A stretch of DNA of 64,000 nucleotides from an uncultured Gemmatimonadales bacterium (GTDB lineage Bacteria > Gemmatimonadota > Gemmatimonadetes > Gemmatimonadales > GWC2-71-9), in assembly GCA_963844035.1 (NCBI GenBank), contig CAWJMT010000005.1, positions 64,001 to 128,000 of the forward strand, written 5' to 3'. This document shows positions 587 through 20,317 of this stretch, in pieces; positions within the stretch are counted from its first letter, which is position 1; each line of letters starts with the position of its first letter. Both the position numbers and the translations under genes were made by a program. The notes below the pieces were generated by a model. The model was not told where the DNA came from, did not search any database, and saw only the letters and a program-made list of their open reading frames with translations.

Positions 587-600
587 GGTTCCGGGACTCC

Positions 601-1819
601 TCAGAAGTTGGATTGCCAGGAAAACTTGAGCTCTTTCGCGGTGCGCGACTCGCCCGTGATGTCCTTGTACATGTAGAGATCCAGGCCGGCCCGCAGCTGG
701 ACGCTGTTGGCGAAGTAGATGTTGAGGACAGGCGTGATGAGGACGCCCTGATCGTTGTCCGTGTCGGTGTTCGGGTCGGTGAAGTCGAGTCGGACGGCAG
801 GCTCGATGATCTTGATGATGCGCGTGTCGGAGCCCTTGGTCGCGACGCGATACGCCACGATAAAATGCCAGCCCATGAACTTCACGATGTTCGAGTCCGC
901 GCTGTTCCGCAGGTTGGCGGTGTTGCGGCCAGTGTTCACGCGGAGCTGGGCCGCGGCGGCGCCCTGGACGATCGGGACGTTGTCACCGGCCGCGAAGTCG
1001 GCGATGACGTGCAGACCCGGGCGGTAGCCACCCCATTCGGCGTCGATGCCGAACGCCGTGGTGGCCTTGGACGAGTCGGCGAAGAAGGTGGGGGCTGCCG
1101 GGATCGCGCCGGCCGGGCAGTTCGAGCAGATCGCACGGTCGCGCGAGCCAAACGACGCACCGACCTGGAGCATCGGTTGTTTGTCCTTGTTCTGTAGCGC
1201 GACGGCGGTGGCCCGTCCGAAGAAGCTCTTCGCGTTGTTGACGTCGGTGGCGCTCTCACGCGAGCCGCCCTGGACGACACCCTTGATGAAGAACTTGTGA
1301 TCGTTGCTCTCGAGCTCCACGCCGGCGCCGAGATCGTGGGACGCATAGCCGTTTTGCGCCAGCACGTCGTTCAGGCCCTCTTTGCCAGAGAGTCGCAGAA
1401 TCCGCACGCCGCGCTCGATCGACAGCAGGTTGTTGGAGCTGATCAGCTCGTAGCGCTGGAACGGCGACTTTTCCTGTCCCATCACGACGAACACGTTGCG
1501 CGTGAGGCCGACGCGCAGGAACGCGTCGCGCATCCGCAGCGCTCCCATTTCGAAGCTCGGCTGGATGACCAGGTTGATGTTGTCGCCGAACCGCACGTTG
1601 GTCTGGATGCGGAGCCGGCGGACTTCGAAGATGTTGTTCACGCCGGTCGAGTTGTAGCCGACCCCCCCGCTGAGGGTGGAGTCACCCGACGAATTGCGGT
1701 ACTGCACCTGGACGCGGCCCTGCACCTGGATGTTCGGGGCCTGCGCGGCGAGCGATGCGGCGCCGAGCGACGGCGGCCACGACGATGATCGATACACGGC
1801 TAAACAGTCCTGTGTGCAC
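601..1819 (-). CDS. Phosphate-selective porin (OprO/OprP-like) outer-membrane beta-barrel
   Basis: FEVRRLRI and LRMRDAFL...GQEKSPF motifs; C-terminal Phe (WQSNF); directly upstream of pstS; probable GTG start at 1819 with an indel in the signal peptide. Confidence 0.75.
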
Positions 1820-1898
1820 GGTGAGCTCCCCAAGACAGAGTAGTAGACGGACGACACGCACAACGTGGCCGCACGCCATCACCGTCAGGTGGCAGCAA

Positions 1899-1915
1899 TG
1901 TCACGGATGTGTAAC
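1899..1915 (-). promoter_or_regulatory. Candidate Pho box (GTTACA-catcc-GTGACA)
   Basis: 11-bp-period direct repeat upstream of the porin-pstS unit. Confidence 0.7.
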
Positions 1916-1923
1916 GAGGGAGG

Positions 1924-1955
1924 CAGGTAGCGGAGCCGAGTGGCCACCGCTCCCG
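1924..1955 (-). terminator. Imperfect hairpin after porin 2, related to the 3079-3112 hairpin
   Basis: caggtagcggagccg arm is identical to the one at 3079. Confidence 0.45.
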
Positions 1956-1966
1956 TGGGAAGCTGG

Positions 1967-3007
1967 CTAGAAGGTGAACTGAGTTTGAAAGAGCGCCTGC
2001 GAGCGGGCCGCTTCCTGCGCCGCCGTGGGCGTGCCCTGGTAGTCGACGATGTCCAGATCGACCAGGAGCCGCCAATTGGGATGGATCTGATACGACGCAC
2101 CGCCGATGTAGCGGATCTGCTGATCGGTGCCGTTGCCGGCCTGAGGGTTGAAGATGTCAACGCGGCCGAGCACCGCGGCCTTCGAGTTCTTGAACTTGTA
2201 CACCCCGAACGCGCTGTACAGGTGGCCGTTGGTCGGCACTCGCACGGGGGCGGTCACCGTATCGTGCGTGAGCGCCATTTCGGCGGCGAGGGTGGCCTGT
2301 TTCGAGCGGTAGGAGAGCATCGTCAGGAGGTAGCTTCGCTCGCCCCCCGACGTGGGCTTTCCGTACTGACCGTAGAGCGAGAGGCGGAGGCCGCCGACTC
2401 TGCTCGAATCGTCGGTGCCCATGAGCCGTGCGGACACGCGACCCATCAGGTCCTTGCCCTGATCCCCCGTGCCACGGTTGTAGTTGTCGCCGTTTACCAA
2501 GGTGACCTGCATGTTCACCTTGTCGGGACCCCACTTGCCGTCGATACCGGCGCCGAAGTCAGCCGACGCGATGTACCCGTTGCGCTCCATCGCGATCTGC
2601 CCCTGCATCCGGTAGTCCCACAGCGTTTCTTCCCAATCGACCCAAGGGGTGTGGATGAGGCCGAGCTTGAAGGTCAGCGGGCTCTTCCCGGGGGTGTAGG
2701 CGACATACGCGTACTTCAGTCGGTAGGCGCGGGAACTGTCGGCGTTGTTGAAGATGTCGGCCGTGACGCGCGTGTACAGGCCGCCCGAGAACTTCCCGAT
2801 CACGTTGATGTAGGCGCGGGTCACCTCGAATCGATTGAGGTGATTCGCGGTGTCGTTGAGCTGGTACAGGAACTGGGTGTAGACCAACCCGCCCACGGTG
2901 ATCGGCGATGGTGGGGACGGGGCGGGGGTTTGCGCAGCCACAGCCCCGACGCCCAGCGTAGAGAGGACGACCACAAGGGAACGCCAGCGAATCTGTCTTG
3001 CGTGCAC
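1967..3007 (-). CDS. Outer-membrane porin-like beta-barrel protein
   Basis: Signal peptide, FEVTRAYINV and RLKYAYV motifs, C-terminal TQFTF; GTG start with GAGGAG RBS. Confidence 0.7.
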   Translation of the reverse strand: MHARQIRWRSLVVVLSTLGVGAVAAQTPAPSPPSPITVGGLVYTQFLYQLNDTANHLNRFEVTRAYINVIGKFSGGLYTRVTADIFNNADSSRAYRLKYAYVAYTPGKSPLTFKLGLIHTPWVDWEETLWDYRMQGQIAMERNGYIASADFGAGIDGKWGPDKVNMQVTLVNGDNYNRGTGDQGKDLMGRVSARLMGTDDSSRVGGLRLSLYGQYGKPTSGGERSYLLTMLSYRSKQATLAAEMALTHDTVTAPVRVPTNGHLYSAFGVYKFKNSKAAVLGRVDIFNPQAGNGTDQQIRYIGGASYQIHPNWRLLVDLDIVDYQGTPTAAQEAARSQALFQTQFTF

Positions 3008-3040
3008 GGTGATCTCCTCAGGGAAGGGGTCGTCCAGTAG

Positions 3041-3057
3041 TGCCACGGGATTCTAAC
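3041..3057 (-). promoter_or_regulatory. Candidate Pho box (GTTAGA-atccc-GTGGCA)
   Basis: 11-bp-period degenerate repeat upstream of porin 2. Confidence 0.5.
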
Positions 3058-3070
3058 GGCGGCCGGGAGG

Positions 3071-3112
3071 CAAGAAAACAGGTAGCGGAGCCGTGTTGGC
3101 CTCCGCTACCTG
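3071..3112 (-). terminator. Rho-independent terminator
   Basis: caggtagcggag/ctccgctacctg stem followed by TTTTCTTG on the minus strand. Confidence 0.8.
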
Positions 3113-3165
3113 GCACCCGGACAGCACGGCCGTGCAACCGGTCGCCGGGCGTCGCTCGGGAACGT

Positions 3166-3746
3166 CTAGAGCTTGTTGGCGAAGCTGACGAACTTGAACC
3201 GTTCGCCGCGTTCGAGGATGGGCCCGAACAGACGCTCCTGCGTTGCGACCAGCGCACGACGTCCACACCGTATTCTCTCCCTGGTGGCTCGGCGCGTCGT
3301 CGCAGGCGTAGCCGACGTAGCCGAGCGAGCGACCGCCCCGCTGCTCAAGGGCGCGCATCAGTCCCTTGCGACTGCCTTCCTGCATCAGAGAACCACATCA
3401 GCCCCGGGCTGAGGTCGTACGGTGGCCTGGGCCTCGGGGTTGGTGGGATAGTACAGGTAGGCGAACTCGGCACGGTTGATGGCGAGGGCGGCGAGGGCGG
3501 CGGTGTCCGACCGCTCCAACGCGCGGACGTAGCGCTCGACCAGCGCGTCGCGGGTCGGGGCCGCGTCCACGAGTCCCGACGGTTGCTCGAGCCCGGCGCG
3601 AAACCGTGCGAGCTCGACGTCACGCGGAACGACGCTATCCACGTGCTGCGGCGGGGCGGCGGCGGCTTGCGCCGGCTGCCGCCGGCAGGCGCCGGCGGCA
3701 GCAAGCAGGCTGCAGCAGCATGCGAGCGGAGCACCGGTGCCTTCAT
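3166..3746 (-). CDS. Hypothetical exported protein (frameshifted across several ORFs)
   Basis: Consecutive fragments DSVVPRDVELARFR...AEFAYLYYP / PYDLSPGLMWF / GYVGYAC / RLFGPILERGERFKFVSFANKL. Confidence 0.6.
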
Positions 3747-3749
3747 CGC

Positions 3750-5196
3750 TCAGTTGATCGCGTAGGCTGGTCCACCCCTGCCACCACTTGGCACCGGCGG
3801 GGTCGGCGGCGCCGAGGTAGGTCGGTATTCACCCACGTGCCGCCGAAGTAGCTCGCGACGCGGGCGGCTGGAGCGGTGCCGCCGCCCGACGTCGCAGGTG
3901 AGCCGGCCTTGGGCGTCCAGTCGAGTCCGGTCGGATTCACGTTGATGCCGAGCAGCGTGTCCACCGCGACGTTCGCCGCGTACTGCTTCAGGGTGGCGAG
4001 GCGGCCGGCATCCCAGTTGGTGGTCTGCGCGAAGCCCGCGCCGACGGTGTCGAAGTTGAAGCCGTTCTGGGCGACCAGGAGGTTCGTGATCTGGAGCGAG
4101 TCCTTGCCGCCCGACGCGACGAACAGCGAGTCAGACCAGGCGTCGCGGATGTTGATCGCGATGCCCTTCCAGCGGGCGAGGACACCGTTCATGAACGTCC
4201 CGCCGGTGCCGCGGCGCCACACGCCGCCGTTCCCGTCGGCGGGAATGCTGGCGAGCTGCCCGGGGCCGATGAACGTGAAGTTCGCGACCACCGGGTTCGA
4301 GTACGGCGTGCTCGCCCCGGTCGCCGTGACGACGCACCCGCTCACGGTCGGGTCGCAACCGTCGCCCTCGAAGCCGCGGGGATCGGTCGAGAAGACGCCG
4401 GCGCCGGAGGCGGGAATGAGGCGCTGGGTTTGCAGGGCGATGACGAACTGGCTGCGTCCCACGTAGCCTTCGGTCCAGTCGAAGTGATCGTCGCCCGACT
4501 CGTACGACACGAGGTATCGGGTGTCGACGGCGCCACCCCAGAACTCGAAGGAGTCGTCGAGGCCCGCCATCGTCTGGATGTACTCGTAGGTCGTGCCGCG
4601 ACCCACGGCGTAGGACGACAGCGAATTCAGCTCCTGCCCGGCGCCGTTCGAGATATCGTAGCCGGCGAACTCGATGCGGACGTAGCGCAGCACGCCGCTG
4701 TTGTCGTTGTTGTCGGTGCCGCCGGCGTAGTTCTCCGCCTGGCCGGCTGCTCCGCCCTCGGTGAGGATCGTGGCCCCGGTGCGGTTGATGATCCCGTTGC
4801 CGATGACGATGATCCCGCCCCAGTCCCCTGGTTTCCGGTTCCCGACGGCGCGCTGCGACGTGAAGACGATCGGCGCGGCGGCGGTGCCGCTCGCCATGAT
4901 CTTCGCGCCGCGCAGGATCCACAGGGAGCTCCCGAGGACGGTGGTATCACCCACGATCTTCGTGCCTGCCGGGATCGTCAGGGTGGCGCCGTTCGTCACC
5001 TTCACGTAGCCGCTGAGCGTGTACACGGTGTCCTTCGAGAGCGTGCGGCTGGCGGTGATGTTGCTGTTGATGACCGACGCACCGTCGTCGGCGTCGGATT
5101 GGGGTTAGTGGGGGAGTCGTCATCTCCGCAGCCCGCCACGGCGCCGAGCAAAACGGCCGTGGCAACGGGAAGGAGCATTCTCGGCAGGCGCATCAT
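3750..5196 (-). CDS. Surface lipoprotein, predicted beta-helix, partner of the TonB receptor
   Basis: Lipobox VAGC; PGDWGGIIVIG, NSGVLRYVRIEFAG and DDSFEFWGG...DDHFDW motifs; indels near both ends. Confidence 0.75.
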
Positions 5197-5227
5197 GATT
5201 CAATCCTCTCGGTTGGGGTGAAGGACA

Positions 5228-8022
5228 TCACAGCGTCCAGGTGACGCCCAGGCTGACCACTCGGCCCGTCGTATAGCGCAGCCGCATGACGGATCCCTGG
5301 ACCATTTGATACGGCGAGTCGAGCAGGTTCTTGCCGTCGAGTCGCATCGCCAGCTGCGGCGTGACGAGCACCTGCGATGAGAAATCGACGACGTGCCGGG
5401 GCTGGTCGTACGCGTCCGGCACCGGCTGTTGCCCGACCTCGGCGACCCGCCGCCCCACGACGTTGTACAGGCGCGGTGGCGCTGATGCGGCCCCCGCTGC
5501 TGGCGTACGACATGCCGAGGTTCACGACGTAGGGGGCCTGGCCCTGCATCGGGCGCTCCGAGCTGGTATTGCTCGAGATGCCCTCGTTGCCCGGCCGGAT
5601 CTGGCTGTGCATCAGCGTCGTGTTGGCGAACAGCGTGATTGGCGTGAGCGCATGGCGCGATCGCACGCAGGTTCTTGCGGACTTCCAGCTCGACACCGTA
5701 GTTCGAAGGCGCCGTCCGCGTTGACGAACTGCAGCGAGGACGTCCCCGTCGATCCCGACGATGACCTTCTCGATCGGTTGATCGAACGTTTTCGCAAACA
5801 CGCCGAGACTCACGACCTCGGCGGACGTGGGATACCACTCCCAGCGGACGTCGTAGTTCTGAATGAGCACGCGCTGCAGGGACGTGTCACCGGCGATGAT
5901 CAGCCCCTCGAACCCGTTTTGTGCGTAGCGGATGGGCGAGATCTCGCGGTATTCGGGCCGGGACAACGTCTGACTCGCCGACAACCGCAGGTTCTGCGAC
6001 GGCGTGAGCCGGTAGGTCAGCGCGGCTGCGGGGAGGAAGTCGAGGTACTCGTGCACCGGGTCTGTCTTGGTCCCTTGCGCATCCTGCGTGTGCAGCTCCA
6101 CGCGACTGTTCTCGGCACGCAGGCCGGTGATCACGCGGGTGCGCTCGCCGAGCGCGAACTCGAGCTGGACGTAGCCGGCGCCCAGGTGGTCGTTGGCGGT
6201 GTAGTAGCCACCGTTCGAGTTGAGGAGCAGCAACATCCGGCTGCTCGCGGCGTACGCGCCGTCGAAGATCGTCTCGGGCGCCTGGGCGCGCTCCTGATCG
6301 GAGAGGTCCAGGTTGTCGATCTCGAACGGGCGAGTTTCTTCCGTCCGGTCCACCGCGCGGTAGACGCCGCCGAGCTTGAGCGCGCTTCCGCGACCCGGCT
6401 CTCCCCAGGACAGCTTGTAATTCCCTGACAGCTCGAGTGCGCTTCTCGTGCAGGTCGCCGAACGTCCGTACCGCCGATCGGGATGCGCCCCACCACGCGA
6501 TCGGCTGCGACGTGCGCGCAATCGTATCGAGCGTGGCGGTATAGATGATCTCGGAACGGTCGGGCTCATAGCGCCGTACGGACGAGCTCGATACCGACCA
6601 GTCCACCATGTTCCGCGCGCCCAGATGGTGTTCCGCGTGGAGCTGGGTCGAGCGGACGTAGCGCTCCGTGAACGTCAGGCGCGTGATGTCGAGGCCCGGT
6701 AATTGCGAGAACTCTTCGGTCGTCCCGGCCAACCGGGTGGCCTGGTTGTCGGCGGTGCGACTGTACGTATTGTTGAGCCCGACCTTGGTGGAGCCGAGCT
6801 CGGCGGTGACGATTGAAAATCCCACCCCAGAGCACCCCCGCCGTCGCCGGTGGAGCCGTAGTAGGAGTTCAGGGGTCGCGCGCCGCCGTTGCCGTCGGCT
6901 ACAGCGACCGAATGCTGCTCGTCGGTACGCACGTCCTGGCTGGTCGAGTAGCTGAGCGATCCCAAGTAGCCCAGGGGGACGCTGCCGACCAGACCGCGAC
7001 CGCCGGCGGAGAGACCGAGTGAGCCGATGCCGGGACCCGCGGCGTTGCGGGCGGACCAGGCGTTCCGGAACGACCCGATGACCGCGTCCATTTCGGACCG
7101 GCTGAGTCCGGCCATGTCGGGTGGGCCGTGCAGCGGATCCGCCGGCGCGCGGAATCGCGCGCGCGCTGCCGGCGAACCCGAGCCATTCGGGGCCGACGGT
7201 CGGGGCGATCGGAATGTCCACCCGGGTCGCTCCCGTGTTCCCGCCGCCCGACATGGAAAACGTGAGCATCCTGCGGAGCGGGAACTCGCGCGTCTTGAGG
7301 TTCACCGACGCGCCGCTGAAATCCCCCGACTGGTCCGGCGTGAAGGTCTTGGACGTGGTGATCGACTCGAGCAGGCTCGATGGGAAGAGATCGAACGGCA
7401 CCACCTTGCGATCCGGCTCGGGGCTCGGGACGCGCGCGCCGTTCAGCGCCGTCGTGGTGTAGCGCTCGCCCAGTCCCCGCACGAAGACGTACTTGCCGTC
7501 CTCGACGCTCACGCCGGAGACACGCTGCACCGCCTCGCCCGCGTCGGAGTCGGGGCTCTTGCGGATCTGCTCTTCAGTTACCGCATTGGTGATCTGGTCG
7601 GCGTTGCGTTGCTCGTTCAGTGCGGAGCTCACCGAGCCGCGCTCCTGCTCGGCGGTCACCGTGACCGCCTCGAGCTCCACGGCCGCGCCCGCGAGCGTGA
7701 CGTCGAGCGTCGTCGTCTGACCGGCCACGACCGACACACCGGTGACGAACTTCGCTGCGCGTCCGATCGTGCGGGCGCTGATCGTGTAGATGCCCGGACG
7801 CACGTCGGCCAGGATGTACCGGCCGGACCAGTTGCTGATGACGGTGATCGTGGTGCCTTCGACGGTCACCTGGGCGCTGGGGATCCCGTCGCCCCGCTCC
7901 GCGTCGACGACGCGGCCGGCGATACGGCCGACCGCCGCGCTCGAGTCCTGCGCGTGAAGCGGTGACGTGATCGCAAGGAGGCCCAGCAGCAGGATTGGGG
8001 CTCGGAATGACGATGGTGACAT
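5228..8022 (-). CDS. TonB-dependent receptor with N-terminal carboxypeptidase-regulatory-like domain (frameshifted)
   Basis: Plug motifs QRVSGVSVEDGKYVFVRGLGERY and VPFDLFPS; barrel motif SQTLSRPEYRE...NYDVRWEWYP; C-terminal GRVVSLGVTWTL. Confidence 0.9.
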
Positions 8023-8070
8023 GACGCTCCCATGCACGGGTGGTTGCATGAAGAAGCGAACGCACGCGCG

Positions 8071-9214
8071 TCACGAGAGCGGTGGAAAGCGGTAACGGTT
8101 TGGTAACAGAGGCGACGCGCGGACGGCTCGCGCGCGTAGCGGCGGGGCTACGCTCGGTCGGAGCGGACGGCCTGACGCGGTGCTGAGCAGCAGCGGTGCG
8201 GCGGGGCGGGCCAGGGCGGCAGCCAGGCTCACGACCCCGGCTTGCAGCTCGGCCTGCGATTCGCGCTGCCGCTCTTCTCCGAACGCGCTGAACGCGTCTT
8301 GCTGCGCTTGTTGCGCGAGCCGCGCGAGGGCGAGCACGCCGGTGGTCGCCGCGAGCGGCCGCTTCCGCGAGGCGGGCGCGCGCCGGGGCGCGCGGGCGAT
8401 GGTGAGATCGTGCTGCCGCCGCGCCCGCTCTGCTGCGGCGTCGGCCACGGCATCGGCCAGCTCCGCGCTCAAGACCTGGAGATCGTGCAGGTCGCCGAGC
8501 TGCGTCTGGATCGCCTTCAACCGGATCAGGAGGGCGGCCGCTCCCGGGTGGGCCTCCGCGAGCGGCTCCAGCAGGTAGCGCAGGTGCTTGGCGACGAGGC
8601 GGATCCCGTGAGCGGTCGATTCGTCGCCCGCGGACTGGAGCGTGGAGATCTCCTGGGCCAGCAGGGCGGCCTGCTCCGTCAGCAGGCCGGCGGCGACCGC
8701 ACCGAAGGTTGGGACGACGCTCGCCGAGCCCGCCGGAATGTTGCCGGCGGCCCGCAGCGCCTTCCGCAGCCGGCGCTCGAGGCGTTGAAACTCCGATGCG
8801 AGCTCGTCCTGGATCTGTTCGTACGCACGGTCGCGGCGTTCGGCGAGTCGCGCCAGCAACCATGGGACGCCCGCGCGCTGGCCGCGCTCCTAACCTCCCC
8901 TCCAGCGTTTTCACCGCAGCGATCAGGACCTCGGCGTCGCGTCCCGCCGCCGTGGCGCGCGTCAGGTCGCGTAGACGATTGCGCAACTTCCTGGGAACGG
9001 CGTGATCGAGCTCGGAGCGGAAGCTGCGCAACGTGCTGCGCAGGCGGCGGACGGCGACCCGGAAATCGTGCAGTGCCTCCGTGTCGCTCGGGTCCGCGAC
9101 GCGTTGCGCCGCGGTATGCGCGGCGTCGACGTGCACCTGACAAACGAGCGCGGCCGCCTCCGGGGCGGAGCGCGTGGTAAGGTCAGCCGGGTACTCAGCC
9201 ACGATCGGCACCAA
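8071..9214 (-). CDS. CHAD-domain (polyphosphate-binding) protein (frameshift ~8880)
   Basis: EALHDFRVAVRRLRS, RDAEV, HGIRLVAKHLRY and QTQLGDLHD motifs. Confidence 0.85.
8091..8107 (-). promoter_or_regulatory. Candidate Pho box (GTTACC-aaacc-GTTACC)
   Basis: Perfect 11-bp-period repeat upstream of the TonB receptor. Confidence 0.75.
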
Positions 9215-9710
9215 GCCGGCGCAGGTGCTTGGGGCCGAGAAACCAGTCGAGCGTTGCCCCGCCGCGGGCGACGGGGCCGGTGAACTCGAGCAGGCACGCC
9301 GCGCCTTTTCGGAACTCGAGGAAGGGCCCGTTGGTGCTGGCCAGGAGGGCGCAGACCATCCGGCTCAGGTCCGGTTCGTGGCCCACGAGCGCGGCCGTGC
9401 CCCGCCCCGGGAGCCCGGCGACCCAGGCGAGCACCCGATCGATCGCGGTGCCCGGCGCGAGCTCCGCCACCCGCTCGACGGTGAGCCCGCCGTACACGCG
9501 CGCGACGATGTCCGCCGTGTCGAACGCGCGTTTGAGCGGGCTCGACGCGAGCAAGTCGATGGTCGGCACGATCTCCTTCAGGCCAACGGCGCCGCGACGC
9601 ATCTTTTCGCGGCCCTCAGGAGTCAGCGGCCGGGCTGCGTCATCGCGCTGCTCGCGCGCGAAGTCCTCCCGGTCTTCGGCAATGGCGTGACGGATGACGA
9701 GCAGGCGCAC
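9195..9710 (-). CDS. sixA: SixA-type histidine phosphatase
   Basis: LLVIRHA, RPLTPEG, SSPLKRA and LVGHEP motifs. Confidence 0.85.
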   Translation of the reverse strand: MRLLVIRHAIAEDREDFAREQRDDAARPLTPEGREKMRRGAVGLKEIVPTIDLLASSPLKRAFDTADIVARVYGGLTVERVAELAPGTAIDRVLAWVAGLPGRGTAALVGHEPDLSRMVCALLASTNGPFLEFRKGAACLLEFTGPVARGGATLDWFLGPKHLRRLGADRG

Positions 9711-9718
9711 CGGAAGTC

Positions 9719-11899
9719 TCAGGCAGGAGCGCGGGTGCGCGCGGCGCCGCGAGCCGACACCGTGCGCGGGTGCGGCACGACCGGGCTGAGCGGGGGACGC
9801 GCGTCGCTCATTTCCCGCGTGGCCTCGCGGGCGAGCTGCTGGAGCGCGATCTGGGAGCGGACCGATGGGTCGTCCTTTCCGGGGAGGCGCCGGTGGTATG
9901 TCCCGTCGGATGCCAGCTCCCGTGCTTTCACGTTGTCGGCCACCTCGAGACGCAGGATCTCGTTGATGAGGCGAGCCTTGAGGGCCGGATCTTCGATGGG
10001 GAACACCGTCTCGATGCGCCGCCAGAGGTTGCGGGGCATCCAGTCGGCGCTCGAGAGAAAGACGTCCGGGTCGCCGTCGTTCTCGAAGTAGAAGATGCGG
10101 CTGTGCTCGAGAAATTTGTCCACGACGCTGGTCACACGGATGTTGTCCGAGACCCTCGGCAGCCCTGGGCGGAGGCAACAAATACCCCGCACCATGAGGT
10201 CGATGGACACCCCTGCCTGGGACGCCCGGTACAGCGCGTCGATCACCGAGGGCTCCACCAACGCGTTCATCTTGAGGATGATGCGCGCGGCGCGGCCCGT
10301 GCGGGCGTTCTTTTCCTCGCGCCCGATCAGCGCCATCAGGCGTTCCCGCAGGCCCCGGGGCGCCAGGATGAGCTTCTTCCACGTGTACCCTTCGGCATAC
10401 CCGGTCAGCAGGTTGAAGAGCGCGCTCGTGTCCTCGCCGAACTCCGGCTGCGCCGTGAAGAGCCCGAGATCGGTATAGACGCGCGCGGTGGTGGGGTTGT
10501 AGTTCCCCGTGGACAGGTGGACGTAGCGCCGGATCCCATCGGGCTCGCGGCGCACGACAAGTGCTGCCTTGCAGTGGGTCTTCAAACCGACGATGCCGTA
10601 CACCACGTGGACGCCGGCCTGCTCCAGCGTGCGCGCCCAGTTGATGTTGTTCTGCTCGTCCATGCGGGCCTTGAGCTCGATGAGGGCGGTCACCTCTTTG
10701 CCGTTCTGGGCCGCGCGGGTGAGGGCGGCGATGATCTGGCTCGCGCCGCTGGTGCGGTACAGCGTTTGCTTGATCGCCAGGACCTGCGGGTCCTTCGCGG
10801 CCTGTTCGATGAAGTCCACCACACATCCGAACGATTCGTACGGCAGGTGCACCAGGACGTCCTGCCGCCGGATGACGTCGAACAGGTCATGCCCCATCCC
10901 GAACGGCGGGGGCACGCGGGGGACGAGCGGCTCGTCCTTGAGGGCCGCGAGGCCCTCGAGTCCCGCCAGCGCCAGGAGCGCCGTGAGGTCCACGGGGCCG
11001 GCGACGCGGTACACGTCGCGCGCGCTGAGGTCGAGCGCCTCGCTCAACATCCCAACGAAGGCCTCGTCGGCGTCGGCGGAGATTTCCAGACGGACCGGAT
11101 CGCTCCGGATACGCTGGCGCAGACTCTCCTCGATCATTTCGAGCAGGTCTTCAGCCTCCTCCTCTTCGAGGGTCAGGTTGGTGTTTCGCGTGACGCGGAA
11201 GACGGCGTGATTCAGCACGCGGAGGCCGCCAAACAACTCCTGCAAGTGTTGGGCGATGATGTCTTCCAGCAGCATGAAGCGTACGCGGCCGCCGCTGCGT
11301 GACACGATCACGACGCGGTCCAGCACCGCGGGCACTTGCACGACGGCGAAGTGCTTCCGGGGGGCGCTGCCGTTCGCGCGCTCGATCATGAGCGCGATAT
11401 TGAGACTCTTGTTGTGCACGTGCGGAAAGGGATGTCCGGGGTCGATCGCGAGCGGCGTCAACACCGGGTAGATGCTGGTGTGGAACAGCGCCTCGATCTC
11501 ACCCCGCTCGCTCTCGTTCAGGTCGTCGAACCGCACCCGCTCTACGCCTCCGGCGGCGAGTCCTGGAAAGAGATGCTCCGCCAAAATGAGGTATTGGGCG
11601 GCAACCAGCTCATGGGTACGCTCGGCGATCGCGGCGAGCTCCTCGGCGGGTGCCATCCCGTCGGCGCCGTAGTCCTGCGGCTCCACGCCCGCGAAGACCT
11701 GTTGCTGCAGTCCTGCGACGCGGATCTCGAAGAACTCGTCCAGGTTCGAGCTGAAGATGCCGAGGAATTTCAACCGCTCGAGCCAGGGGTTGGTCGCGTC
11801 CGCCGCTTCCTCAAGGACGCGTCCGTTGAACTCGAGCCACGACAGTTCCCGGTTGATGTAGTGATCCGGGGGATACGCGGGGATGGGGCGGTCGGTCAT
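9719..11899 (-). CDS. ppk1: Polyphosphate kinase 1
   Basis: YINRELSWLEFN, HLPYESF, KQTLYRT, KTHCK and FLEHSRI motifs. Confidence 0.97.
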   Translation of the reverse strand: MTDRPIPAYPPDHYINRELSWLEFNGRVLEEAADATNPWLERLKFLGIFSSNLDEFFEIRVAGLQQQVFAGVEPQDYGADGMAPAEELAAIAERTHELVAAQYLILAEHLFPGLAAGGVERVRFDDLNESERGEIEALFHTSIYPVLTPLAIDPGHPFPHVHNKSLNIALMIERANGSAPRKHFAVVQVPAVLDRVVIVSRSGGRVRFMLLEDIIAQHLQELFGGLRVLNHAVFRVTRNTNLTLEEEEAEDLLEMIEESLRQRIRSDPVRLEISADADEAFVGMLSEALDLSARDVYRVAGPVDLTALLALAGLEGLAALKDEPLVPRVPPPFGMGHDLFDVIRRQDVLVHLPYESFGCVVDFIEQAAKDPQVLAIKQTLYRTSGASQIIAALTRAAQNGKEVTALIELKARMDEQNNINWARTLEQAGVHVVYGIVGLKTHCKAALVVRREPDGIRRYVHLSTGNYNPTTARVYTDLGLFTAQPEFGEDTSALFNLLTGYAEGYTWKKLILAPRGLRERLMALIGREEKNARTGRAARIILKMNALVEPSVIDALYRASQAGVSIDLMVRGICCLRPGLPRVSDNIRVTSVVDKFLEHSRIFYFENDGDPDVFLSSADWMPRNLWRRIETVFPIEDPALKARLINEILRLEVADNVKARELASDGTYHRRLPGKDDPSVRSQIALQQLAREATREMSDARPPLSPVVPHPRTVSARGAARTRAPA

Positions 11900-11900
11900 G

Positions 11901-13532
11901 CTAGCGCTTCCGCTTGGCGCGCGGCCATGAGAGCGACACCTGGGTCTCGAACGCCTTCTCGAACAGACCCGCCTTCCGCCTCGCGTCCTCCAGCTCGATG
12001 AGCGGGTCGTGCGCCGCGGTGACCAGAATCCGCATCCATCCGTCGCCAACCCGGCAGCGCACTCCCGCGACGACCTGGCCGTGGGCCCGGTCGAGGCCGT
12101 CCGCGACCCGCAGGATTCCCGCGAGGCGCCGCACGAGACGACGCTCGCCCTTTTCGAGTCCGGCGAAGTTGGCGTGCGCCTTCTTCGGAACCGCGCGCCG
12201 GTGATAGCGGGCGACGTTGGCGATCAGCTCGACTTCCCGCTTCGAAAACCCCCGCAGGTCCGCGTGCATGATCAGGTGGTATGCGTGCTTGTGATGCTCC
12301 TCGTGGTTGATGAGGTAGCCGATGTCGTGCAACAGGGCCGCCGCGCGCAGGATGTCGCGACCGTTCGGCGGCAGCGCGTACGCGTCGCGCAGCGCGTCGA
12401 ACATCTCGGCGGCCAGGGCGGCGACGTGCTCGCAATGACGTTCGTTGGAGCGGCACTTGCGGGCGAACCGGCGCACCGCTTCGAGGCGGTCCGGCTGCAG
12501 GTCCTTCGCCGGCGCCGGGGTGCCGCCCCGCTCGTCGATCATCGACAGCAGCACGCCGTCCCGCACACCGCGGTCATTCACCATCACCCGTTGCGTGCCG
12601 AGCCACTTGGTCAGACGGGAGACGACGGCGACCCCCGCCAAGATGATGTCGGCTCGCGCAGGGTTGAGGCCTGGTATCCGGCGCCGGGCGTCGAGCGGCG
12701 TCTCCCGCAGCCGGTCGAGCGTGCGCTTGACCTCGGCGCGGCTGAGCGCGTAGTCCCGGGCGTTCGTCACCTTGCCGTCCCGCTCCGCCTGTGCCATCTC
12801 GGCCAGATTGGTAAACGTCCCGCCGCTCCCGATCATCAATGGGGCGGCGAACGGCGGCTTCCCGATCGCGTCCTTGATCGCCTGATCGATCGCGCGACGC
12901 AGCGCCTTCCAATGCTTGGGGCGGAGCGGGTCGGACTTCCCAAAGCGTTCCGTCAGCCGGACCGCGCCCAGCGGCAGCGAGACGACCTGCTCCACCAGGC
13001 CGCCGGCGGCAAGGACGACTTCGGCGCTGCCGCCACCGATGTCGACGATGGCGGTCAGGCGATCGTCGAGATCGTAGTGGCGGGTCACGCTCCGGAAGGC
13101 GAGCCGCGCCTCCTCCTCGGCCGGGACCACTTCGATGCGCAGGCGATGACGCCGCCAGGCTTCACGCACGAAGTCGCGCCCATTCGATGCCTCGCGCACG
13201 GCGCTCGTCGCGATCGCCCGCAGCTCGGCCACGCCGAACCCGTCGGCGATCGCTTTCATCTTGCCGAGCGCCTGCAGCGACTGTTCCATCGGCCCTTCAC
13301 CAAGGTGGCCGCTGCTGTATAATCCGCGGCCGAGGCGCGTCATCTCGCGGTCCTCATCGAGCAGGCGGTAGCTCCCATCGGCATCGACCTCGACCACGGC
13401 GAGACGAATCGAGTTCGTGCCGATGTCGATCGCGGCCAAGCGGGGGAGCGGTGGCTGCCCGCCGGGCGCTGGGGGCGGGGCGGCGCTGGCCTTGGCCACG
13501 CTTGCGGGTGCTGCCGTCGGGGCGATCACCAT
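11901..13532 (-). CDS. ppx: Ppx/GppA exopolyphosphatase with HD domain
   Basis: AIDIGTNS, ATSAVREA, DIGGGSAE and LLHDIG motifs. Confidence 0.93.
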   Translation of the reverse strand: MVIAPTAAPASVAKASAAPPPAPGGQPPLPRLAAIDIGTNSIRLAVVEVDADGSYRLLDEDREMTRLGRGLYSSGHLGEGPMEQSLQALGKMKAIADGFGVAELRAIATSAVREASNGRDFVREAWRRHRLRIEVVPAEEEARLAFRSVTRHYDLDDRLTAIVDIGGGSAEVVLAAGGLVEQVVSLPLGAVRLTERFGKSDPLRPKHWKALRRAIDQAIKDAIGKPPFAAPLMIGSGGTFTNLAEMAQAERDGKVTNARDYALSRAEVKRTLDRLRETPLDARRRIPGLNPARADIILAGVAVVSRLTKWLGTQRVMVNDRGVRDGVLLSMIDERGGTPAPAKDLQPDRLEAVRRFARKCRSNERHCEHVAALAAEMFDALRDAYALPPNGRDILRAAALLHDIGYLINHEEHHKHAYHLIMHADLRGFSKREVELIANVARYHRRAVPKKAHANFAGLEKGERRLVRRLAGILRVADGLDRAHGQVVAGVRCRVGDGWMRILVTAAHDPLIELEDARRKAGLFEKAFETQVSLSWPRAKRKR

Positions 13533-13593
13533 GGAGATACCGGGTGCAGGTGAGTGGTCGAGCGTGAGTTGCTTTAGAATCTACACCATGTTA

Positions 13594-13610
13594 CGTAACG
13601 ACCGGGCAAC
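13594..13610 (-). promoter_or_regulatory. Candidate Pho box (GTTGCC-cggtc-GTTACG) in the divergent ppx/ppk2 gap
   Basis: 11-bp-period repeat with a TAGATT -10-like hexamer downstream on the minus strand. Confidence 0.5.
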
Positions 13611-13703
13611 GGCTATGTCTCGGTGTAAGCTCATGCGCCGCCGCGAGATGCGCGGCATGCGTCGTGCGGCGTTCGCCCCGCACTCAGGCTGGAGGGTCAC
13701 GCG

Positions 13704-14513
13704 ATGACGCTGCGCGAGCGGCTGCTGGTCGAGCCGGGGAAGGCGGTGATGCTCGCCGACTGGGACCCGGCGGACAAGCTCGGGTTCACGAAGGACGACG
13801 AGCACAAGGTCGCCCTGGCGGAGGACATCGAGCGCCTGGATGAACTCCAGTACCTGATGTATGCGGAGGACCGGCACGCGCTGTTGATCGTGCTCCAGGG
13901 AATGGATGCCTCGGGGAAGGACGGCACGATCCGGCACGCGATGTCGGCGTTCAATCCGCAGGGGTGCCGGGTGACTGCCTTCAAGACTCCAACCCCTGAA
14001 GAGTTACAGCACGACTTCCTGTGGCGCGTTCATCGCGCCGTGCCTGGCCGGGGCGACATTGCGATCTTCAATCGGTCGCACTACGAAGACGTGCTGGTCG
14101 CCAGGGTCCGCAAGCTCGTCTCGAAGGACGTGTGGTCGAGCCGCTACGGGCAGATCAACCAGTTCGAAGAGCTGCTGCGAGACAACGGAGTTACCATCGT
14201 GAAGCTCTTCCTGCACATCAGCAAAGAGGAGCAGAAGGCGCGTTTCGAAGAGCGGCTCAAGGACCCGACCAAGCAGTGGAAGGTCGCACCGGGCGATTTC
14301 GAGGACCGGAAGCATTGGGACGACTACCTCACGGCCTACGAGGACGCACTCACTCGTTGCAGCACCGATGCCGCACCGTGGTACATCATCCCGGCGGACC
14401 GGAAGTGGGTCCGCAACCTTGTCGTATCGCGCCTGCTCATAGAGATCCTCGAGGCGCTCGAGATGAAATTCCCCAAGCCGGCGTTCGACCTGTCCGACCT
14501 GAAGATCGAGTAG
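13704..14513 (+). CDS. ppk2: Polyphosphate kinase 2 family (class III-like)
   Basis: LQGMDASGKDG Walker A, HDFLWR and FNRSHYEDVL motifs. Confidence 0.93.
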   Translation: MTLRERLLVEPGKAVMLADWDPADKLGFTKDDEHKVALAEDIERLDELQYLMYAEDRHALLIVLQGMDASGKDGTIRHAMSAFNPQGCRVTAFKTPTPEELQHDFLWRVHRAVPGRGDIAIFNRSHYEDVLVARVRKLVSKDVWSSRYGQINQFEELLRDNGVTIVKLFLHISKEEQKARFEERLKDPTKQWKVAPGDFEDRKHWDDYLTAYEDALTRCSTDAAPWYIIPADRKWVRNLVVSRLLIEILEALEMKFPKPAFDLSDLKIE

Positions 14514-14524
14514 CGTGACCGGCT

Positions 14525-14986
14525 TCAGGTATCGGGGGTCAACGGCACCTGCTCCGCCGGGACCCCGGACGGAGAGAACCGGACCGCCAGGACTCGCACG
14601 CCGGCCAGGCCCCCGATAACGACGAGCAGCAACGCAAACGATTTCCAGTCGCCGCCGCGCAGCCACAACGAGATGATTTCGGTCAGCATCACCACCAGGA
14701 TCGTGTCCACGATGAACGTCACCCGCACGCGTCCCTCGGCGAGGTAGGCGAGGGTGGCCTTGAAGACTTCGACCACGGCCAGCAGGATCAGGATCCCGAT
14801 CAACACGTGCCGCAGCACCAGCTCCACGTCCTCGACGAACAGGCGTCGCAGCTCCCACCCCACGGCGAGAATCCCGCCCACCAGAGTCGCCAGAATCAGC
14901 AGTAACAGCCCGCTCAGGACGGCGCGAATGAACCAGACGAACGGTCGCGCGCGCATGTAGACTGCGGCTTGTTCGAGGTCATCCAT
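14525..14986 (-). CDS. Phosphate-starvation-inducible PsiE-family membrane protein
   Basis: Four TM helices; VEVFKATLAY...RVRVTFIVD pattern; Pho context. Confidence 0.7.
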   Translation of the reverse strand: MDDLEQAAVYMRARPFVWFIRAVLSGLLLLILATLVGGILAVGWELRRLFVEDVELVLRHVLIGILILLAVVEVFKATLAYLAEGRVRVTFIVDTILVVMLTEIISLWLRGGDWKSFALLLVVIGGLAGVRVLAVRFSPSGVPAEQVPLTPDT

Positions 14987-15095
14987 TAGGTGTCAGGTGT
15001 TAGGTGCTAGGTGTCAGGTGGGAAACTCTGCAGGGTGGGTGCGGGGTGCTGGGCGTCATTACCTGACACCTCACACCTGGCACCTAGCACCTGCC
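14987..15095. repeat. Inverted array of degenerate heptamers (YAGGTGY x5 / reverse complement x5)
   Basis: taggtgt caggtgt taggtgc taggtgt caggtgg ... acctgac acctcac acctggc acctagc acctgcc. Confidence 0.9.
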
Positions 15096-15096
15096 C

Positions 15097-15528
15097 TTAT
15101 CCCAGCAACCGCGTCGCCACGATTGCGCCTGCCACGCCAAGCAGCACGCCGGCGAGCACGTCGCTCACGTGGTGAACCCGCAGGCGCACGCGCGAGTAGG
15201 CGACGAGTCCGGCGAGCGGCAGAACGAGGGCCGCGTAGATCGGCTCCGCGAGCACTACGCTGCCTGCGACCGCTGTCGCTGCCGCGGCGTGGCCCGAGGG
15301 GAACGAGAAGGGGTCGGGGAGATCGACCAGCGCGAGTGGCCGCCCGAAGGGGTCGCACGGGCGGGTACGCACCACCGTGCGCTTGAGTACCTGCACCGCG
15401 GCGTGCGACATCACGTTCGCGAGCAGGACGGTGAGTCCCAACCGCGCCGTGTTGCCGCCGAACAGCAGCAGCACGATCCCCGCAGCGACGGTCGCGCGCG
15501 CACCGCCGAGATGAGTGATCCAGCGCAT
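15097..15528 (-). CDS. PAP2-family membrane phosphatase
   Basis: KRTVVRTRP, SFPSGH and SRVRLRVHHVSDV motifs; ATGA overlap with the upstream gene. Confidence 0.9.
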   Translation of the reverse strand: MRWITHLGGARATVAAGIVLLLFGGNTARLGLTVLLANVMSHAAVQVLKRTVVRTRPCDPFGRPLALVDLPDPFSFPSGHAAAATAVAGSVVLAEPIYAALVLPLAGLVAYSRVRLRVHHVSDVLAGVLLGVAGAIVATRLLG

Positions 15529-16352
15529 CAGACGGCCACCATCTCGGCCGGAGCGCGGTGGAACGCTCCGGTGAGCGGGCGCCCTTCGTAACAGCTCGGG
15601 ATCTCCATCCCAAACCACCACAGGATCGTCGCGGGCAAGTCGAGCAGGGACACCGAGTGCGTCAGCTGGTGGCGGCGCATCACGCCCGGACCCGCGAGCA
15701 CCAGCGGGATATGATCGTTCACGGGGTGCGGCTCGTCGTGCTCGTGCGACTGAACGCCGCCGCCTCCGTGATCTGCGGTGACGATGAACGTCACCTCGTC
15801 GGTCCACTCGGAGAGAATGCCGATCGCGCTATCCACTTCCGCCGCGGCCTCGAGGTACGGCTCCGACATCCAGCCATGCGCGTGACCGGCGCGATCGCAG
15901 TCGGGCAGGTACAGAAACAGCAGGCGCGTTCCGGGCTCGGCGAGCAGTTCCCCCGCGGCCGCCGCCGTCTCGCGGGCACGCTGGCCCGATGCGATCAGCC
16001 GCCGCGCGCCGGCCGTGGTGGCCAGCGCCCACGCCACCGGGTGGACCGCGCGCCCGAGCTCGGTGGTGACGATGTCCACCGGAATGCCGCCCGTGGTCAA
16101 CTCGCGAGCGACCGGACGCAGCGTTCGCAGGCGTGGCAGGAAGCGCAGGCCGGGCTCGATCAGCCGGTGCGTCTCGGGCGCGACGCCGGTGGCGAGCGAG
16201 GCCAGCGCGGCGACAGTAGCGCTGGGCCGCACGGTGTGCGCCCGCGGGGCGTGGGTGAAGGCCCGACCCATTGCGTCGAGCGAGGGCATCACGCTCGGCG
16301 ACACCGCGTCGGGCCGGAGCCCGTCGGCGAGCACGAACACTAGGCGGCGCAT
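15528..16352 (-). CDS. Alkaline-phosphatase-superfamily (nucleotide pyrophosphatase/phosphodiesterase-like) enzyme, no signal peptide
   Basis: VLADGLRPD, PSATV, DCDRAGH and TADHGG motifs. Confidence 0.8.
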   Translation of the reverse strand: MRRLVFVLADGLRPDAVSPSVMPSLDAMGRAFTHAPRAHTVRPSATVAALASLATGVAPETHRLIEPGLRFLPRLRTLRPVARELTTGGIPVDIVTTELGRAVHPVAWALATTAGARRLIASGQRARETAAAAGELLAEPGTRLLFLYLPDCDRAGHAHGWMSEPYLEAAAEVDSAIGILSEWTDEVTFIVTADHGGGGVQSHEHDEPHPVNDHIPLVLAGPGVMRRHQLTHSVSLLDLPATILWWFGMEIPSCYEGRPLTGAFHRAPAEMVAV

Positions 16353-17502
16353 GCGGTCACCTGCTTCCCATTCCCATGCACCAGGCCCGCGTACTGCGCG
16401 AGGAGCCGGGCGTCTTCGTGCTCGCTGTCGCGCTGGAGCACCCATTCCCGTGCCGCCGCGGCGAGCGCGAAGCGGCGTCCGGAGTCGAGCACGAGGGCTT
16501 CGATCCCGGCCGCGAACGCCTGAGCGTCGTGCGGCGCCACCAGCAGACCGGTCCGCTCGTGATCGACGCTTTCGCGCAACCCGCCGGCATCGGCGGCGAT
16601 CACCGGGAGCCCGGAGGCCATCGCCTCGAGGGCGACGAGGCCACAGGTCTCGGTGTACGACGGGAGCACGCACAGGTCGCAGCTCGCGTACAGGGTGGCG
16701 AGCGTGGTGCGCGGCAGGAACCCGAGCTGGCGGACGAACGGCAGCTCGGTGAAGATCCGCGGTGCGAGCGGACCCTCGCCCGCGATGACGAACGTGGCGC
16801 GCTGTCCCAGGCGCTCGCGCGCCAGCTTCCATGCCGCGATCAAGAACCTCCAGGTTTTTCTCCGGGGCGAGCCGTCCGACGTGCAGGACGATCGCGCTGT
16901 CGTCGCCCCCCGCCATCCAGCGGCGCCATCCCGCCTCGCGCCGCGAGGGGTGAAACTGTTTGGAGTCGACTCCTTGCCCCCACACGTGCGCCTGGCTCAA
17001 GCCGTGGCGGTGCAGCTCATCGCGAGTCCCGTCTCCGGGTGTGAGCGTGAGGCGGGCCGCGCCGTGGAACCAGGCGAGCCAGCGCCACACGAGCGGCGCC
17101 AGCGCGGGCACTCCGTAGTGACGCGCGTAGCGTGGAAAGTCGGTGTGAAACGACGTGACCAGCGGGAGACCGCGCCGCAAGGCGAACCGCCGGCCGGCGA
17201 GGCCGAGCGGCCCTTCCGTGTGCACGTGCACCAGCTCGGGCCCGAAGTCGTCGAGGAATCGCGCCACGGCGCCGAAGGCGGGCAGGGACAAACGGATGGC
17301 CGGATATGGCGGGAAGGGAACCGACGCCACCCGCAGCTCGTGGGTAATGGGGCGGTCGTTCGCGATCGGGGTACCGCGGTGCAACGATCGCAACATCGTG
17401 CCCGGCTTCGCCCAGCATGTCGGCGATGCGCCCCACGATCGTGCTCACCCCGTTCACCTGGGGCGCGTAGGTATCGGAGACTAGCCCAATCCGCACGCCC
17501 AT
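16340..17502 (-). CDS. GT4 glycosyltransferase, glycolipid-synthase-like (frameshifted)
   Basis: SDTYAPQVNGV, SFHTDFPRY, VGRLAPEKN and ETCGLVALEAMASGLPV motifs. Confidence 0.85.
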
Positions 17503-17539
17503 ACGATCGGGCGGGACCGTCAATACCTCGCGACGGGGG

Positions 17540-17556
17540 GGTGACGGGTTTGTAAC
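17540..17556 (-). promoter_or_regulatory. Candidate Pho box (GTTACA-aaccc-GTCACC)
   Basis: 11-bp-period repeat 38 bp upstream of the GT4 start. Confidence 0.7.
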
Positions 17557-17577: not shown

Positions 17578-19305
17578 TCAGCGGTTGGACGGCTCTCCGG
17601 GGAAATGCAACTGGATCGTCGTACCGCGCCCCAGGGTGCTCTCCGCGGTGACGCGGCCCCCGTGCGCTTCCATGAGGTGTTTCACGATCGCGAGCCCCAG
17701 GCCCGTTCCGCCTTGCGCCCGGGAGCGACCCGCGTCGGCCCGATAGAACCGCTCGAAGATGCGGGGCAGGTGCTGCGGTGCGATGCCGGATCCGGTGTCC
17801 GCCACGGCGATCGTGACGCCGTCCGGGGCGGCGGCGGCCCGCACCGCGATCTCGCCGCCCGACGGCGTGTGGCGGAGCGCGTTGTCGAACAGGTTCGTGA
17901 GTATCTGCCGCAACGCGTCCGGGTCCGCCGCCACTGCGGCCGCATCCGGCGCGATCTCGACGGTGAAGCGCATGTCGCGGGCGCGCGCGCGGTCGCTGAA
18001 GGGCGTCCACGCCTCCTGCGCGAGCGCGGCGACATCGACCACGCGCTGCACCGGCTGCCAGCCGCCCGACTCGATGCGAGAGAGGTCGAGGAGATCGTCC
18101 ACCAGGCGCTGCATGCGTTGCGCGTTGCTGAGGATGGTATCGGCGAATTTCCTGGCGCGCTCCTTGTCGGGCTCCTCGGTCGCGAGGGTTTCCGCGTAGC
18201 CGGCGATGGAAGTGAGCGGCGTCTTGAGCTCGTGCGACACGTTGGCGACAAAATCGCGCCGGACGGCCTCGAGGCGGCGCAGCGCCGTGACGTCGCGGAA
18301 CATGAGCAGCGTGCCGCCGTTCGGGAGCGAGCGGCTGGTGACGAGCAGCGCACGGCCTTCGAGGTCGAGCTCCTGCTGGTCGAATTCGCGTCCGCCGAGT
18401 GCCGCGCGCACCAGCTCGCGGGCGCGCTTTTCGTGGAACAGCTCGGTGACTGGTGGAAGCGGCTCGGCAGGCCGGCGGACGAGGAGACGGCGGGCGGCGG
18501 TGTTGACGGTGGCGACGTTGCCCGCGGCGTCGGTGGCGAGCAGGCCATCCGCCATCGATTCGATCAACGTGTGCGTCTCTTCGCGCTCGCGCTGCAGCTC
18601 GGTAAAGCGCTGCAGCAACTGCTCGTGCATGTCGTGCAGCGCCTGGGCGTGCGCGGCGATTTCGGGGATCCGCGATTCGGGGAACACGGGTGACCCACCC
18701 GCCGCGATGGCGCGCGCGGCGTCGCCCAACCGCACGACATTCCGCGCCACGGCACGGCTCAGGATCAACGCGAGCAGCGCCGCCACGCTCAGCGCGGTGA
18801 GCCCGGCGAACAGCACGCCGCGCTGCACCGCGCCCACCGTCCGGTCGACCGCGACGAGGGTGGTCGACAGGCGCACGACCGCGAGGCCCCGCGGGCCACC
18901 CCGCACGGCGAGGTACATGCGGTTCTCATTCGTGGACGCGCTGAGCCGCTGGTCGCGACCCACCCCGGTTGCGATGGCTGCGCGTACTTCGGGACGGTCG
19001 GCGTGATTCTCGAGCCGCGTCAGGGCGGCGCGATCGAACTCGGTGTCGCCGCGCACGCGACCCTTGGGGTCGATCAGGGTGACGCGATGGCCCGACAGCC
19101 GTCCGAGCATGCGGGCCGCGTCGGGCCACGCGGAGGAATCGGCGGGCAGCAGGGCGGCGACGATGTGCGCCTCATGCTCGAGCCCGAGGGCAATCTCGGA
19201 TTCGAGGTTGCGGCGTAGCACCTGGTCCGCAGCGACGATCAGGCCGCCCACGGTGACGGCGAGGAGCAGGCCCGTGCCGACGTAGACACGGCCCGCGAGC
19301 GTCAC
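17578..19305 (-). CDS. phoR: PhoR-like sensor histidine kinase
   Basis: TM-periplasmic(ENHADRPE)-TM-HAMP-PAS; DFVANVSHELKTPL; RIFERFYRAD..RSR..GGTGLGL. Confidence 0.88.
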   Translation of the reverse strand: MTLAGRVYVGTGLLLAVTVGGLIVAADQVLRRNLESEIALGLEHEAHIVAALLPADSSAWPDAARMLGRLSGHRVTLIDPKGRVRGDTEFDRAALTRLENHADRPEVRAAIATGVGRDQRLSASTNENRMYLAVRGGPRGLAVVRLSTTLVAVDRTVGAVQRGVLFAGLTALSVAALLALILSRAVARNVVRLGDAARAIAAGGSPVFPESRIPEIAAHAQALHDMHEQLLQRFTELQREREETHTLIESMADGLLATDAAGNVATVNTAARRLLVRRPAEPLPPVTELFHEKRARELVRAALGGREFDQQELDLEGRALLVTSRSLPNGGTLLMFRDVTALRRLEAVRRDFVANVSHELKTPLTSIAGYAETLATEEPDKERARKFADTILSNAQRMQRLVDDLLDLSRIESGGWQPVQRVVDVAALAQEAWTPFSDRARARDMRFTVEIAPDAAAVAADPDALRQILTNLFDNALRHTPSGGEIAVRAAAAPDGVTIAVADTGSGIAPQHLPRIFERFYRADAGRSRAQGGTGLGLAIVKHLMEAHGGRVTAESTLGRGTTIQLHFPGEPSNR

Positions 19306-20296: not shown

Positions 20297-20317
20297 AGGG
20301 GGCTCCCAGTCGTGGCT

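Follow-up and report, generated by a model that had tools for sequence, protein, structure and literature searches.

In-phase GTNAC repeat arrays as candidate Pho boxes in a phosphate gene island of an uncultured Gemmatimonadales bacterium

A 64,000-nucleotide stretch of the genome of an uncultured Gemmatimonadales bacterium (the whole stretch analysed, here called the window) carries an island of phosphate genes, and short direct repeats lie upstream of several of them. A preliminary description of this DNA took five stretches of the form GTTAC(A/C)-N5-GTNAC(A/C), with a period of 11 base pairs (bp), for the Pho boxes of a complete island, that is, for the binding sites of the phosphate regulator PhoB. 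The locus raises the question of which of these repeats are operators and which protein binds them. The sequence analysis indicates that the arrays are very probably Pho boxes bound by the PhoB-like protein encoded at 19302-20027, which would switch the adjoining genes on at low phosphate.

Repeat arrays in the window

All five stretches sit on the minus strand, 5' of the units to which the preliminary description had assigned them; its gene names agree with our annotation, and CC ends four of the five spacers as it reported. The pattern is exact at three positions (1899-1915, 8091-8107 and 17540-17556) and carries two mismatches at each of the other two, 3041-3057 (GTTAGA-ATCCC-GTGGCA) and 13594-13610 (GTTGCC-CGGTC-GTTACG). 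The 11-bp direct repeats are present as described, and they belong to longer arrays tied to a -10 element, which the description missed. The promoter features are as follows.

1862..1916, minus strand: promoter array before porinB-pstS, with R1 GTTAC at 1911-1915, R2 GTGAC at 1900-1904 and R4 GTGAT at 1878-1882
1862-1867, minus strand: -10-like CACGTT of the porinB-pstS array, predicted from sequence
3041..3057, minus strand: apparently decayed box before porinA, with two mismatches; a 47-bp deletion 3' of the box removes R4 and the -10
3072..3112, minus strand: terminator-like hairpin with 12-bp arms and then a T run, just 5' of the 3041 box, predicted from sequence
8054..8107, minus strand: array before the TonB receptor, with R1 GTTAC at 8103-8107, R2 GTTAC at 8092-8096 and R4 GTGAC at 8070-8074
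8054-8059, minus strand: weak -10 position TCGCTT of the TonB-receptor array, predicted from sequence
13578..13621, minus strand: weaker array between ppx (minus) and ppk2 (plus), with GAGAC, GTTGC and GTTAC in phase
17503..17556, minus strand: four-repeat array before the GT4 operon, with GTTAC, GTCAC, GTCGC and TTGAC, 22 bp after the phoR stop
17503-17508, minus strand: -10-like GATCGT of the GT4 array; the GTG start is at 17496

The boxes are arrays of two to four repeats of (C/T)GT(T/G)AC set one DNA turn apart. When the sites are aligned, R1 and R2 are followed by R3, which varies, and by R4, which is conserved; all keep the 11-bp phase, and R4 reads GTGAC before the porins and TTGAC before the GT4 operon. 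Two to four in-phase repeats precede porin-pstS, pstC, the TonB receptor, ppx and the GT4 operon, and this arrangement is conserved across the order. The hexamer 32 bp past R2, or 10 bp past R4, has T at its sixth position in 84% of 85 sites and both A2 and T6 in 55%; at 40 other offsets A2 and T6 coincide in at most 14%. This offset test and the comparison with Escherichia coli given below place the repeats at a fixed position relative to the predicted -10. The -10-like hexamers are weak and no -35 element stands at the usual distance. The pstC promoter of the genus has two repeats followed 10 bp later by TACGTT or TAGGTT. The GT4 start codon lies 6 bp after its hexamer, so that the transcript is predicted to be leaderless. 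The divergent ppx and ppk2 genes flank the ppx site, whose geometry and -10 distance vary among relatives; in the window TAGATT follows the last core by 11 bp, and this core is half of a GTTACGTAAC palindrome.

The 64 kb contain three exact copies of GTNACM-N5-GTNACM; shuffled sequence contained 0.35 on average, and three or more were present in 2 of 100 shuffles. Genome-wide, the GTTAC(A/C)-N5-GTNAC(A/C) pattern is found 11 times, and with any of 13 other spacings in place of N5 the count is 0-4. Of the 11, three are in the window, one precedes pstC, two are on contig C16, two fall in coding repeats for HYR domains, a palindrome is counted twice and one lies on contig C37. The matrix used to rank the window had neither the present genome nor the 12 nearest genomes or records in its training set. 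The top four sites were 1899 (25.6 bits), 8091 (22.9), 13594 (16.8) and 17540 (15.4); shuffled windows held a mean of 0.5 and a maximum of 4 matches of at least 14 bits (40 shuffles). The 3041 site scored 12.1 bits, within the shuffle range (mean of 3.5 matches of at least 10 bits per shuffled window). The 1899 array is the top-scoring site of the genome under both this type of two-repeat matrix and the 56-bp model described below. The 13594 site has orthologous counterparts in close relatives and is probably real, if weaker.

The leader at 3041 was compared with the 1899 leader and with a second copy of the block at G000:C16:1-7285 (L037; G000 is the present genome). This copy, 83.5% identical to the window island, contains TonB receptor, beta-helix, porin and pstSCAB genes and has intact boxes at 2846 and 5150; it is a paralogue of the block or else belongs to a sister population that was binned together with this genome. 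Both flanks are common to the three leaders, the 3041 cores have two substitutions, and 47 bp including R4 and the -10 are gone. The 3041 stretch is best read as a decayed duplicate of the 1899 leader; having neither intact repeats nor an in-phase -10, and no array layout, it is likely inactive. The 3' arm of the 3072..3112 hairpin, which may act as a terminator, also persists before the 1899 box. The five sites are consequently not of equal standing, contrary to the earlier supposition, and the island is not complete within the window. The pstS-pstCAB-phoU genes run past the left edge, and a sixth site lies 5' of pstC at G000:C5:63440-63456, 545 bp left of the window. Further sites stand off the island, in the second copy on C16 and before a phoX-like gene on contig C12. 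The window appears to hold four credible sites and one decayed one, with more outside.

Conservation and distribution of the motif

The regions upstream of orthologues were taken from 40 relatives plus 30 named loci, with the genome under study excluded. Unseeded expectation maximization (EM) on 34 porin upstream regions returned CGTTAC-N5-CGTTAC with a log-likelihood of 328, compared with 74 and 76 for shuffles. Separate EM runs on pstC, GT4, TonB-receptor and 10 close ppx orthologues gave the same motif, and runs on dnaK and phoB upstream regions gave others. When 200 bp before pstC were used, EM found the coding tail of pstS, which was rejected as a box; 110 bp recovered the box.

A porin-trained matrix, with its cut-off at the 99th percentile of 736 shuffles, located the box before 34/34 porin (the training set), 20/22 GT4, 9/11 TonB-receptor and 22/38 pstC orthologues. 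Lower counts were obtained for PAP2 (7/21), pstS (11/41), ppx (9/34), phoB (13/62) and phoU (4/27). The controls were dnaK (0/17), phoR (0/52), pstA (0/40), pstB (1/43), ada (1/8), ppk1 (1/12) and phosphodiesterase (2/15). The motif is thus recovered from relatives alone and is enriched before porin, GT4, TonB-receptor and pstC genes, which bears out the proposal that it would be found upstream of orthologues. In some relatives (L041:15062, L056:8846, G002:C72, G004:C19 and G005:C29) there is a second phoB-like gene, 59-78% identical, and in L041 and L056 this gene carries its own upstream box.

The preliminary description proposed that the motif could map the regulon genome-wide. A two-repeat matrix gave 8 matches of at least 20 bits and none with the reversed matrix, and 54 against 26 at 13 bits. 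None of 17 off-island matches inspected in this genome preceded a recognised phosphate gene, and several were coding, so the plain two-repeat scan is noisy. A promoter model of 56 bp that also covers R4 and the -10, built from 70 sites in relatives, was run over the 3.47-Mb genome. Its six matches are three sites in the window, one at the C16 porin, C12:43947 and a marginal match on C28. The best off-island match, C12:43947, came up unprompted; it lies about 90 bp upstream of a gene that encodes a signal peptide and matches PhoX (G000:C12:43947-45400, L401; frameshifted in the assembly). Mapping is therefore workable with the longer model, which finds island sites and the phoX-like gene. Among 40 hand-picked non-island regions of relatives, 10 score at least 21 bits, and 6 of these 10 precede phosphate genes (Na/Pi-PhoU, phytase-like, ppk1 twice, DUF47-pit and porin).

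Chance matches, or functionless leftovers of duplicated leaders, would explain 3041, whose leader copies that of 1899, and the abundance of low-scoring matches noted above at 13 bits; matches on contig C10, rejected as Pho boxes, lie in HYR-domain coding repeats. As an account of the arrays in general this is very improbable. Cores, phase and -10 distance are retained across three families while flanks and spacers diverge, and the EM, orthologue and held-out matrix results already rule it out for four of the five sites. The remaining sites are very likely PhoB sites that are conserved before orthologues, as had been claimed, with the reservation on their equality made above.

Several other sequences came to notice during the scans. 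Two-repeat matches of 16-22 bits that do not fit the four-repeat model precede a 510-amino-acid protein without a Pfam match (G000:C21:16711), BON-domain genes (C19:7570 and C11:17201, the same site on two contigs), a sugar transferase (C6:5686) and a polysaccharide export gene (C6:12453). An A+T-rich stretch with a palindromic match (G000:C4:439705-439722) and the HYR-domain repeats of lower G+C on C10 (about 20000-22500) may be foreign DNA or bin contamination. Upstream of dnaK, at L036:14480-14525 (G000:C5 about 58480-58525) and in relatives, a TGCCA-N3-TG(G/A)CA inverted repeat precedes a GG-N10-GC word. EM on 17 dnaK upstream regions ranks the repeat first, with exact copies in 4 of them, and the word looks like a sigma-54 promoter.

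The candidate regulator and its mode of binding

The genes of the island are listed below; several are frameshifted in this assembly, and pstCAB-phoU continue outside the window after pstS.

1..1819, minus strand: porinB (PF07396) and the start of pstS
1967..3007, minus strand: porinA, 54% identical to the C16 porin, which matches PF07396
3743..8022, minus strand: TonB-dependent receptor (frameshifted) and beta-helix protein (Atlas PF28492 at 0.97 for the C16 copy)
8071..13532, minus strand: ppx, ppk1, sixA and CHAD (CHAD frameshifted)
13704..14513, plus strand: ppk2, divergent from ppx across the 13594 site
14525..14986, minus strand: psiE-family protein without a box of its own
15097..17496, minus strand: GT4 glycosyltransferase (frameshifted in the assembly), phosphodiesterase and PAP2 phosphatase
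17578..19299, minus strand: phoR-like sensor kinase with PAS, HisKA and HATPase domains
19302..20027, minus strand: phoB-like response regulator; best family TIGR02154; recognition helix RTVDMHVQRLR

The 19302-20027 protein has TIGR02154 as its best family (258 bits), is the best match to that family in the genome and adjoins phoR and pstSCAB-phoU. Its nearest named PhoB relatives are from Gemmatimonadota, with up to 86% identity. A cognate pair is encoded here, with best families of the PhoB and PhoR types and both scores below the curated cut-offs. The boxes stand upstream of pstS, pstC and other phosphate genes and are conserved in orthologues. Four of 41 genomes have no PhoB-like best match, and the same four have no island.

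A number of results weigh against assigning the arrays to this protein. It falls below the curated PhoB cut-off of 296, a score reached by the best match of 0 of 41 genomes and by only 2 of 14 controls. The genome encodes two other full-length OmpR-family regulators, on C36 and C37. GTNAC repeats are a signature of the whole family, GlnR for one binding gTnAc (PMC10235972, accessible text). Strong boxes occur in two genomes with no PhoB orthologue detected: 25 bits before Na/Pi-PhoU in G014 (97% complete) and 28 bits before an unnamed gene in G029 (100% complete). The promoter-model scan found no box before the phoB, psiE, pit or second ppk1 genes of this genome, and phoX of the relative G025 has no box either. 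Boxes are absent before 25 of 34 ppx and 16 of 38 pstC orthologues, the relatives are not independent of one another, and several zero-count controls are inner operon genes, whose upstream DNA is coding. The four-repeat model does not accommodate the 13594, 3041 and pstC sites, and the -10 elements are predicted from sequence and not mapped. phoD and phoA were not found in this genome, which is 84% complete.

Some of these points would fit operators of another OmpR-family regulator, for instance the C36 or C37 paralogue or one absent from the assembly; PhoB would then act at other sites or share these. The GTNAC cores of GlnR, the match of the helix segment HVQRLR to MtrA and the boxes of G014 and G029 all speak for such a binder. 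The targets, on and off the island, are nearly all phosphate genes, and no site of at least 13 bits lies on C36 or near the C37 regulator. G039, in which no PhoB, PhoU or pstC was found, has no site, and in five genomes without this PhoB type the site counts are near the reversed-pattern control (7 versus 9). The MtrA model gives the protein 192 bits against a cut-off of 300. A different regulator is therefore improbable, and PhoB is kept as the binder.

By analogy with E. coli PhoB and GlnR, PhoR would phosphorylate PhoB, and one or two PhoB dimers per promoter would line up head to tail on the DNA between about -60 and -22. The subunits proximal to the promoter would replace the -35 element through contact with sigma region 4 and so recruit RNA polymerase, and bound PhoB would turn on the boxed genes when phosphate is scarce. 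The accessible text of PMC4415409, PMC3973317 and PMC10235972 provides the basis for head-to-tail binding and recruitment through sigma region 4.

The orientation of the binder cannot be read from the sequence because GTNAC is palindromic. The same PhoB could bind in the opposite orientation and read TGTCAC/TGTAAC from the template strand in the manner of E. coli PhoB, with another contact to polymerase or with repression, for example at ppx/ppk2. In keeping with such a reversal, the Gemmatimonadota matrix scores 11.0 on the E. coli phoA box when reversed and 4.7 forward; the site at ppx is also flanked by divergent genes, and its spacing to the -10 is not constant among relatives. E. coli and other lineages with sense-strand GT(C/A)AC have the same 10-bp gap before the -10, and pyrimidines precede the sense-strand core as in E. 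coli. The unchanged gap fits a single protein orientation with a changed middle base, and so the forward orientation is favoured; the reversed geometry is unlikely, with perhaps a minor share of the probability.

Comparison with known systems

The searched literature, which excluded subscription papers and regulon databases, contained no description of a Pho box with its PhoB in Gemmatimonadota. A phylum-wide genomics paper notes pstSCAB and PhoR-PhoB and, in its accessible text, gives no binding site. Element and mechanism alike are of a textbook kind, and this is an ordinary switch. The arrays supply a workable Pho-box model for a soil phylum that is abundant and largely uncultured, and the model is testable in cultured Gemmatimonas. 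They predict phosphate control of the GT4-phosphodiesterase-PAP2 operon, the TonB receptor with its beta-helix partner and the phoX-like gene. The GT4 operon, boxed in 20 of 22 relatives and apparently leaderless, may possibly belong to a phosphorus-free lipid pathway; comparison placed its GT4 protein in no particular lipid family, and lipid remodelling by the operon is a guess.

The E. coli Pho box consists of CTGTCAT units (PMC4415409, accessible text). The present arrays resemble it in their 11-bp direct repeats, in a last core 10 bp before the -10 at phoA and phoE, in pst, porin and psiE-type neighbours and in the retained helix residues T194 and R201. They differ in the sense-strand middle base, in V197M and R200Q, in the G+C-rich spacer and in a phoB gene without its own box. 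Read in the promoter direction, 93% of R1 and 90% of R2 carry T or G in the middle (101 sites), and the C or A of an E. coli-type unit appears only when the other strand is read.

Substitution V197M, together with R200Q, may have flipped the preferred middle base from C/A to T/G with the promoter geometry fixed, a natural specificity switch of one or two residues; we regard this as a tentative and rather unlikely idea. Residue 197 of E. coli PhoB contacts thymines in the PhoB-DNA structure (PMC3973317, accessible text). M occupies position 197 in all 64 helix reads (not deduplicated) at 57% identity or more. In other lineages, arrays that adjoin PhoB genes of the V- or T-helix type have A or C mid-core in 17/23 and 11/14 cores (28/37 together), and one M-helix gene outside the phylum is preceded by TTTAC/GTGAC. 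Against the switch, the support amounts to nearly one evolutionary event, G019 has V197 yet TTTAC repeats, and the pstS promoter is mixed in the outside genome with the M-helix gene. No T-helix PhoB was found within the phylum (0/301 genomes at E 1e-75, in a search without a positive control), and a metagenome scan for more M-helix PhoB proteins returned one with pst genes and no array. If true, the link between helix and middle base would extend what is known of the recognition code in OmpR/PhoB regulators. G019, of the same family, has a different pho island (L306:13140-13200, G019:C14) with a 44-46% identical PhoB, helix RNIDVHVRGVR, and TTTAC repeats that TAAATT follows after 10 bp; no GTTAC-type box stands before its ppx. 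This island is possibly a replaced, transferred regulon.

The core binding region of Bacillus subtilis PhoP has four TT(A/T/C)ACA repeats from about -60 to -22. It shares with the arrays the number of repeats, the predicted span and the strand sense, and differs in its first base, T there and G here. The accessible text on actinobacterial GlnR describes a four-site activation complex in which four tandem protomers occupy gTnAc sites around the -35 region (PMC10235972). The GTNAC core and the four tandem units around the -35 region are alike; GlnR is a nitrogen regulator without a kinase, uses two boxes with a and b sites, and belongs to another phylum with other targets. Also close is the box of Desulfovibrio vulgaris PhoB (DVU1083), a (c/t)GT(n)AC direct repeat identified by DNA affinity purification on chip (DAP-chip) and electrophoretic mobility shift assay (PMC3333781, accessible text). 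It has the same six-letter core, an 11-bp period in the listed sites and a pstS target, and differs in the A or C mid-core of two sites given there, a position that is T or G here in 90-93% of R1/R2. The core is not unique to the lineage because the D. vulgaris box already has it. The motif had been presented as a lineage-specific core unlike that of E. coli; GTNAC is self-complementary, the other strand reads TGTCAC-N5-TGTAAC, and only the T/G middle base looks particular to these bacteria.

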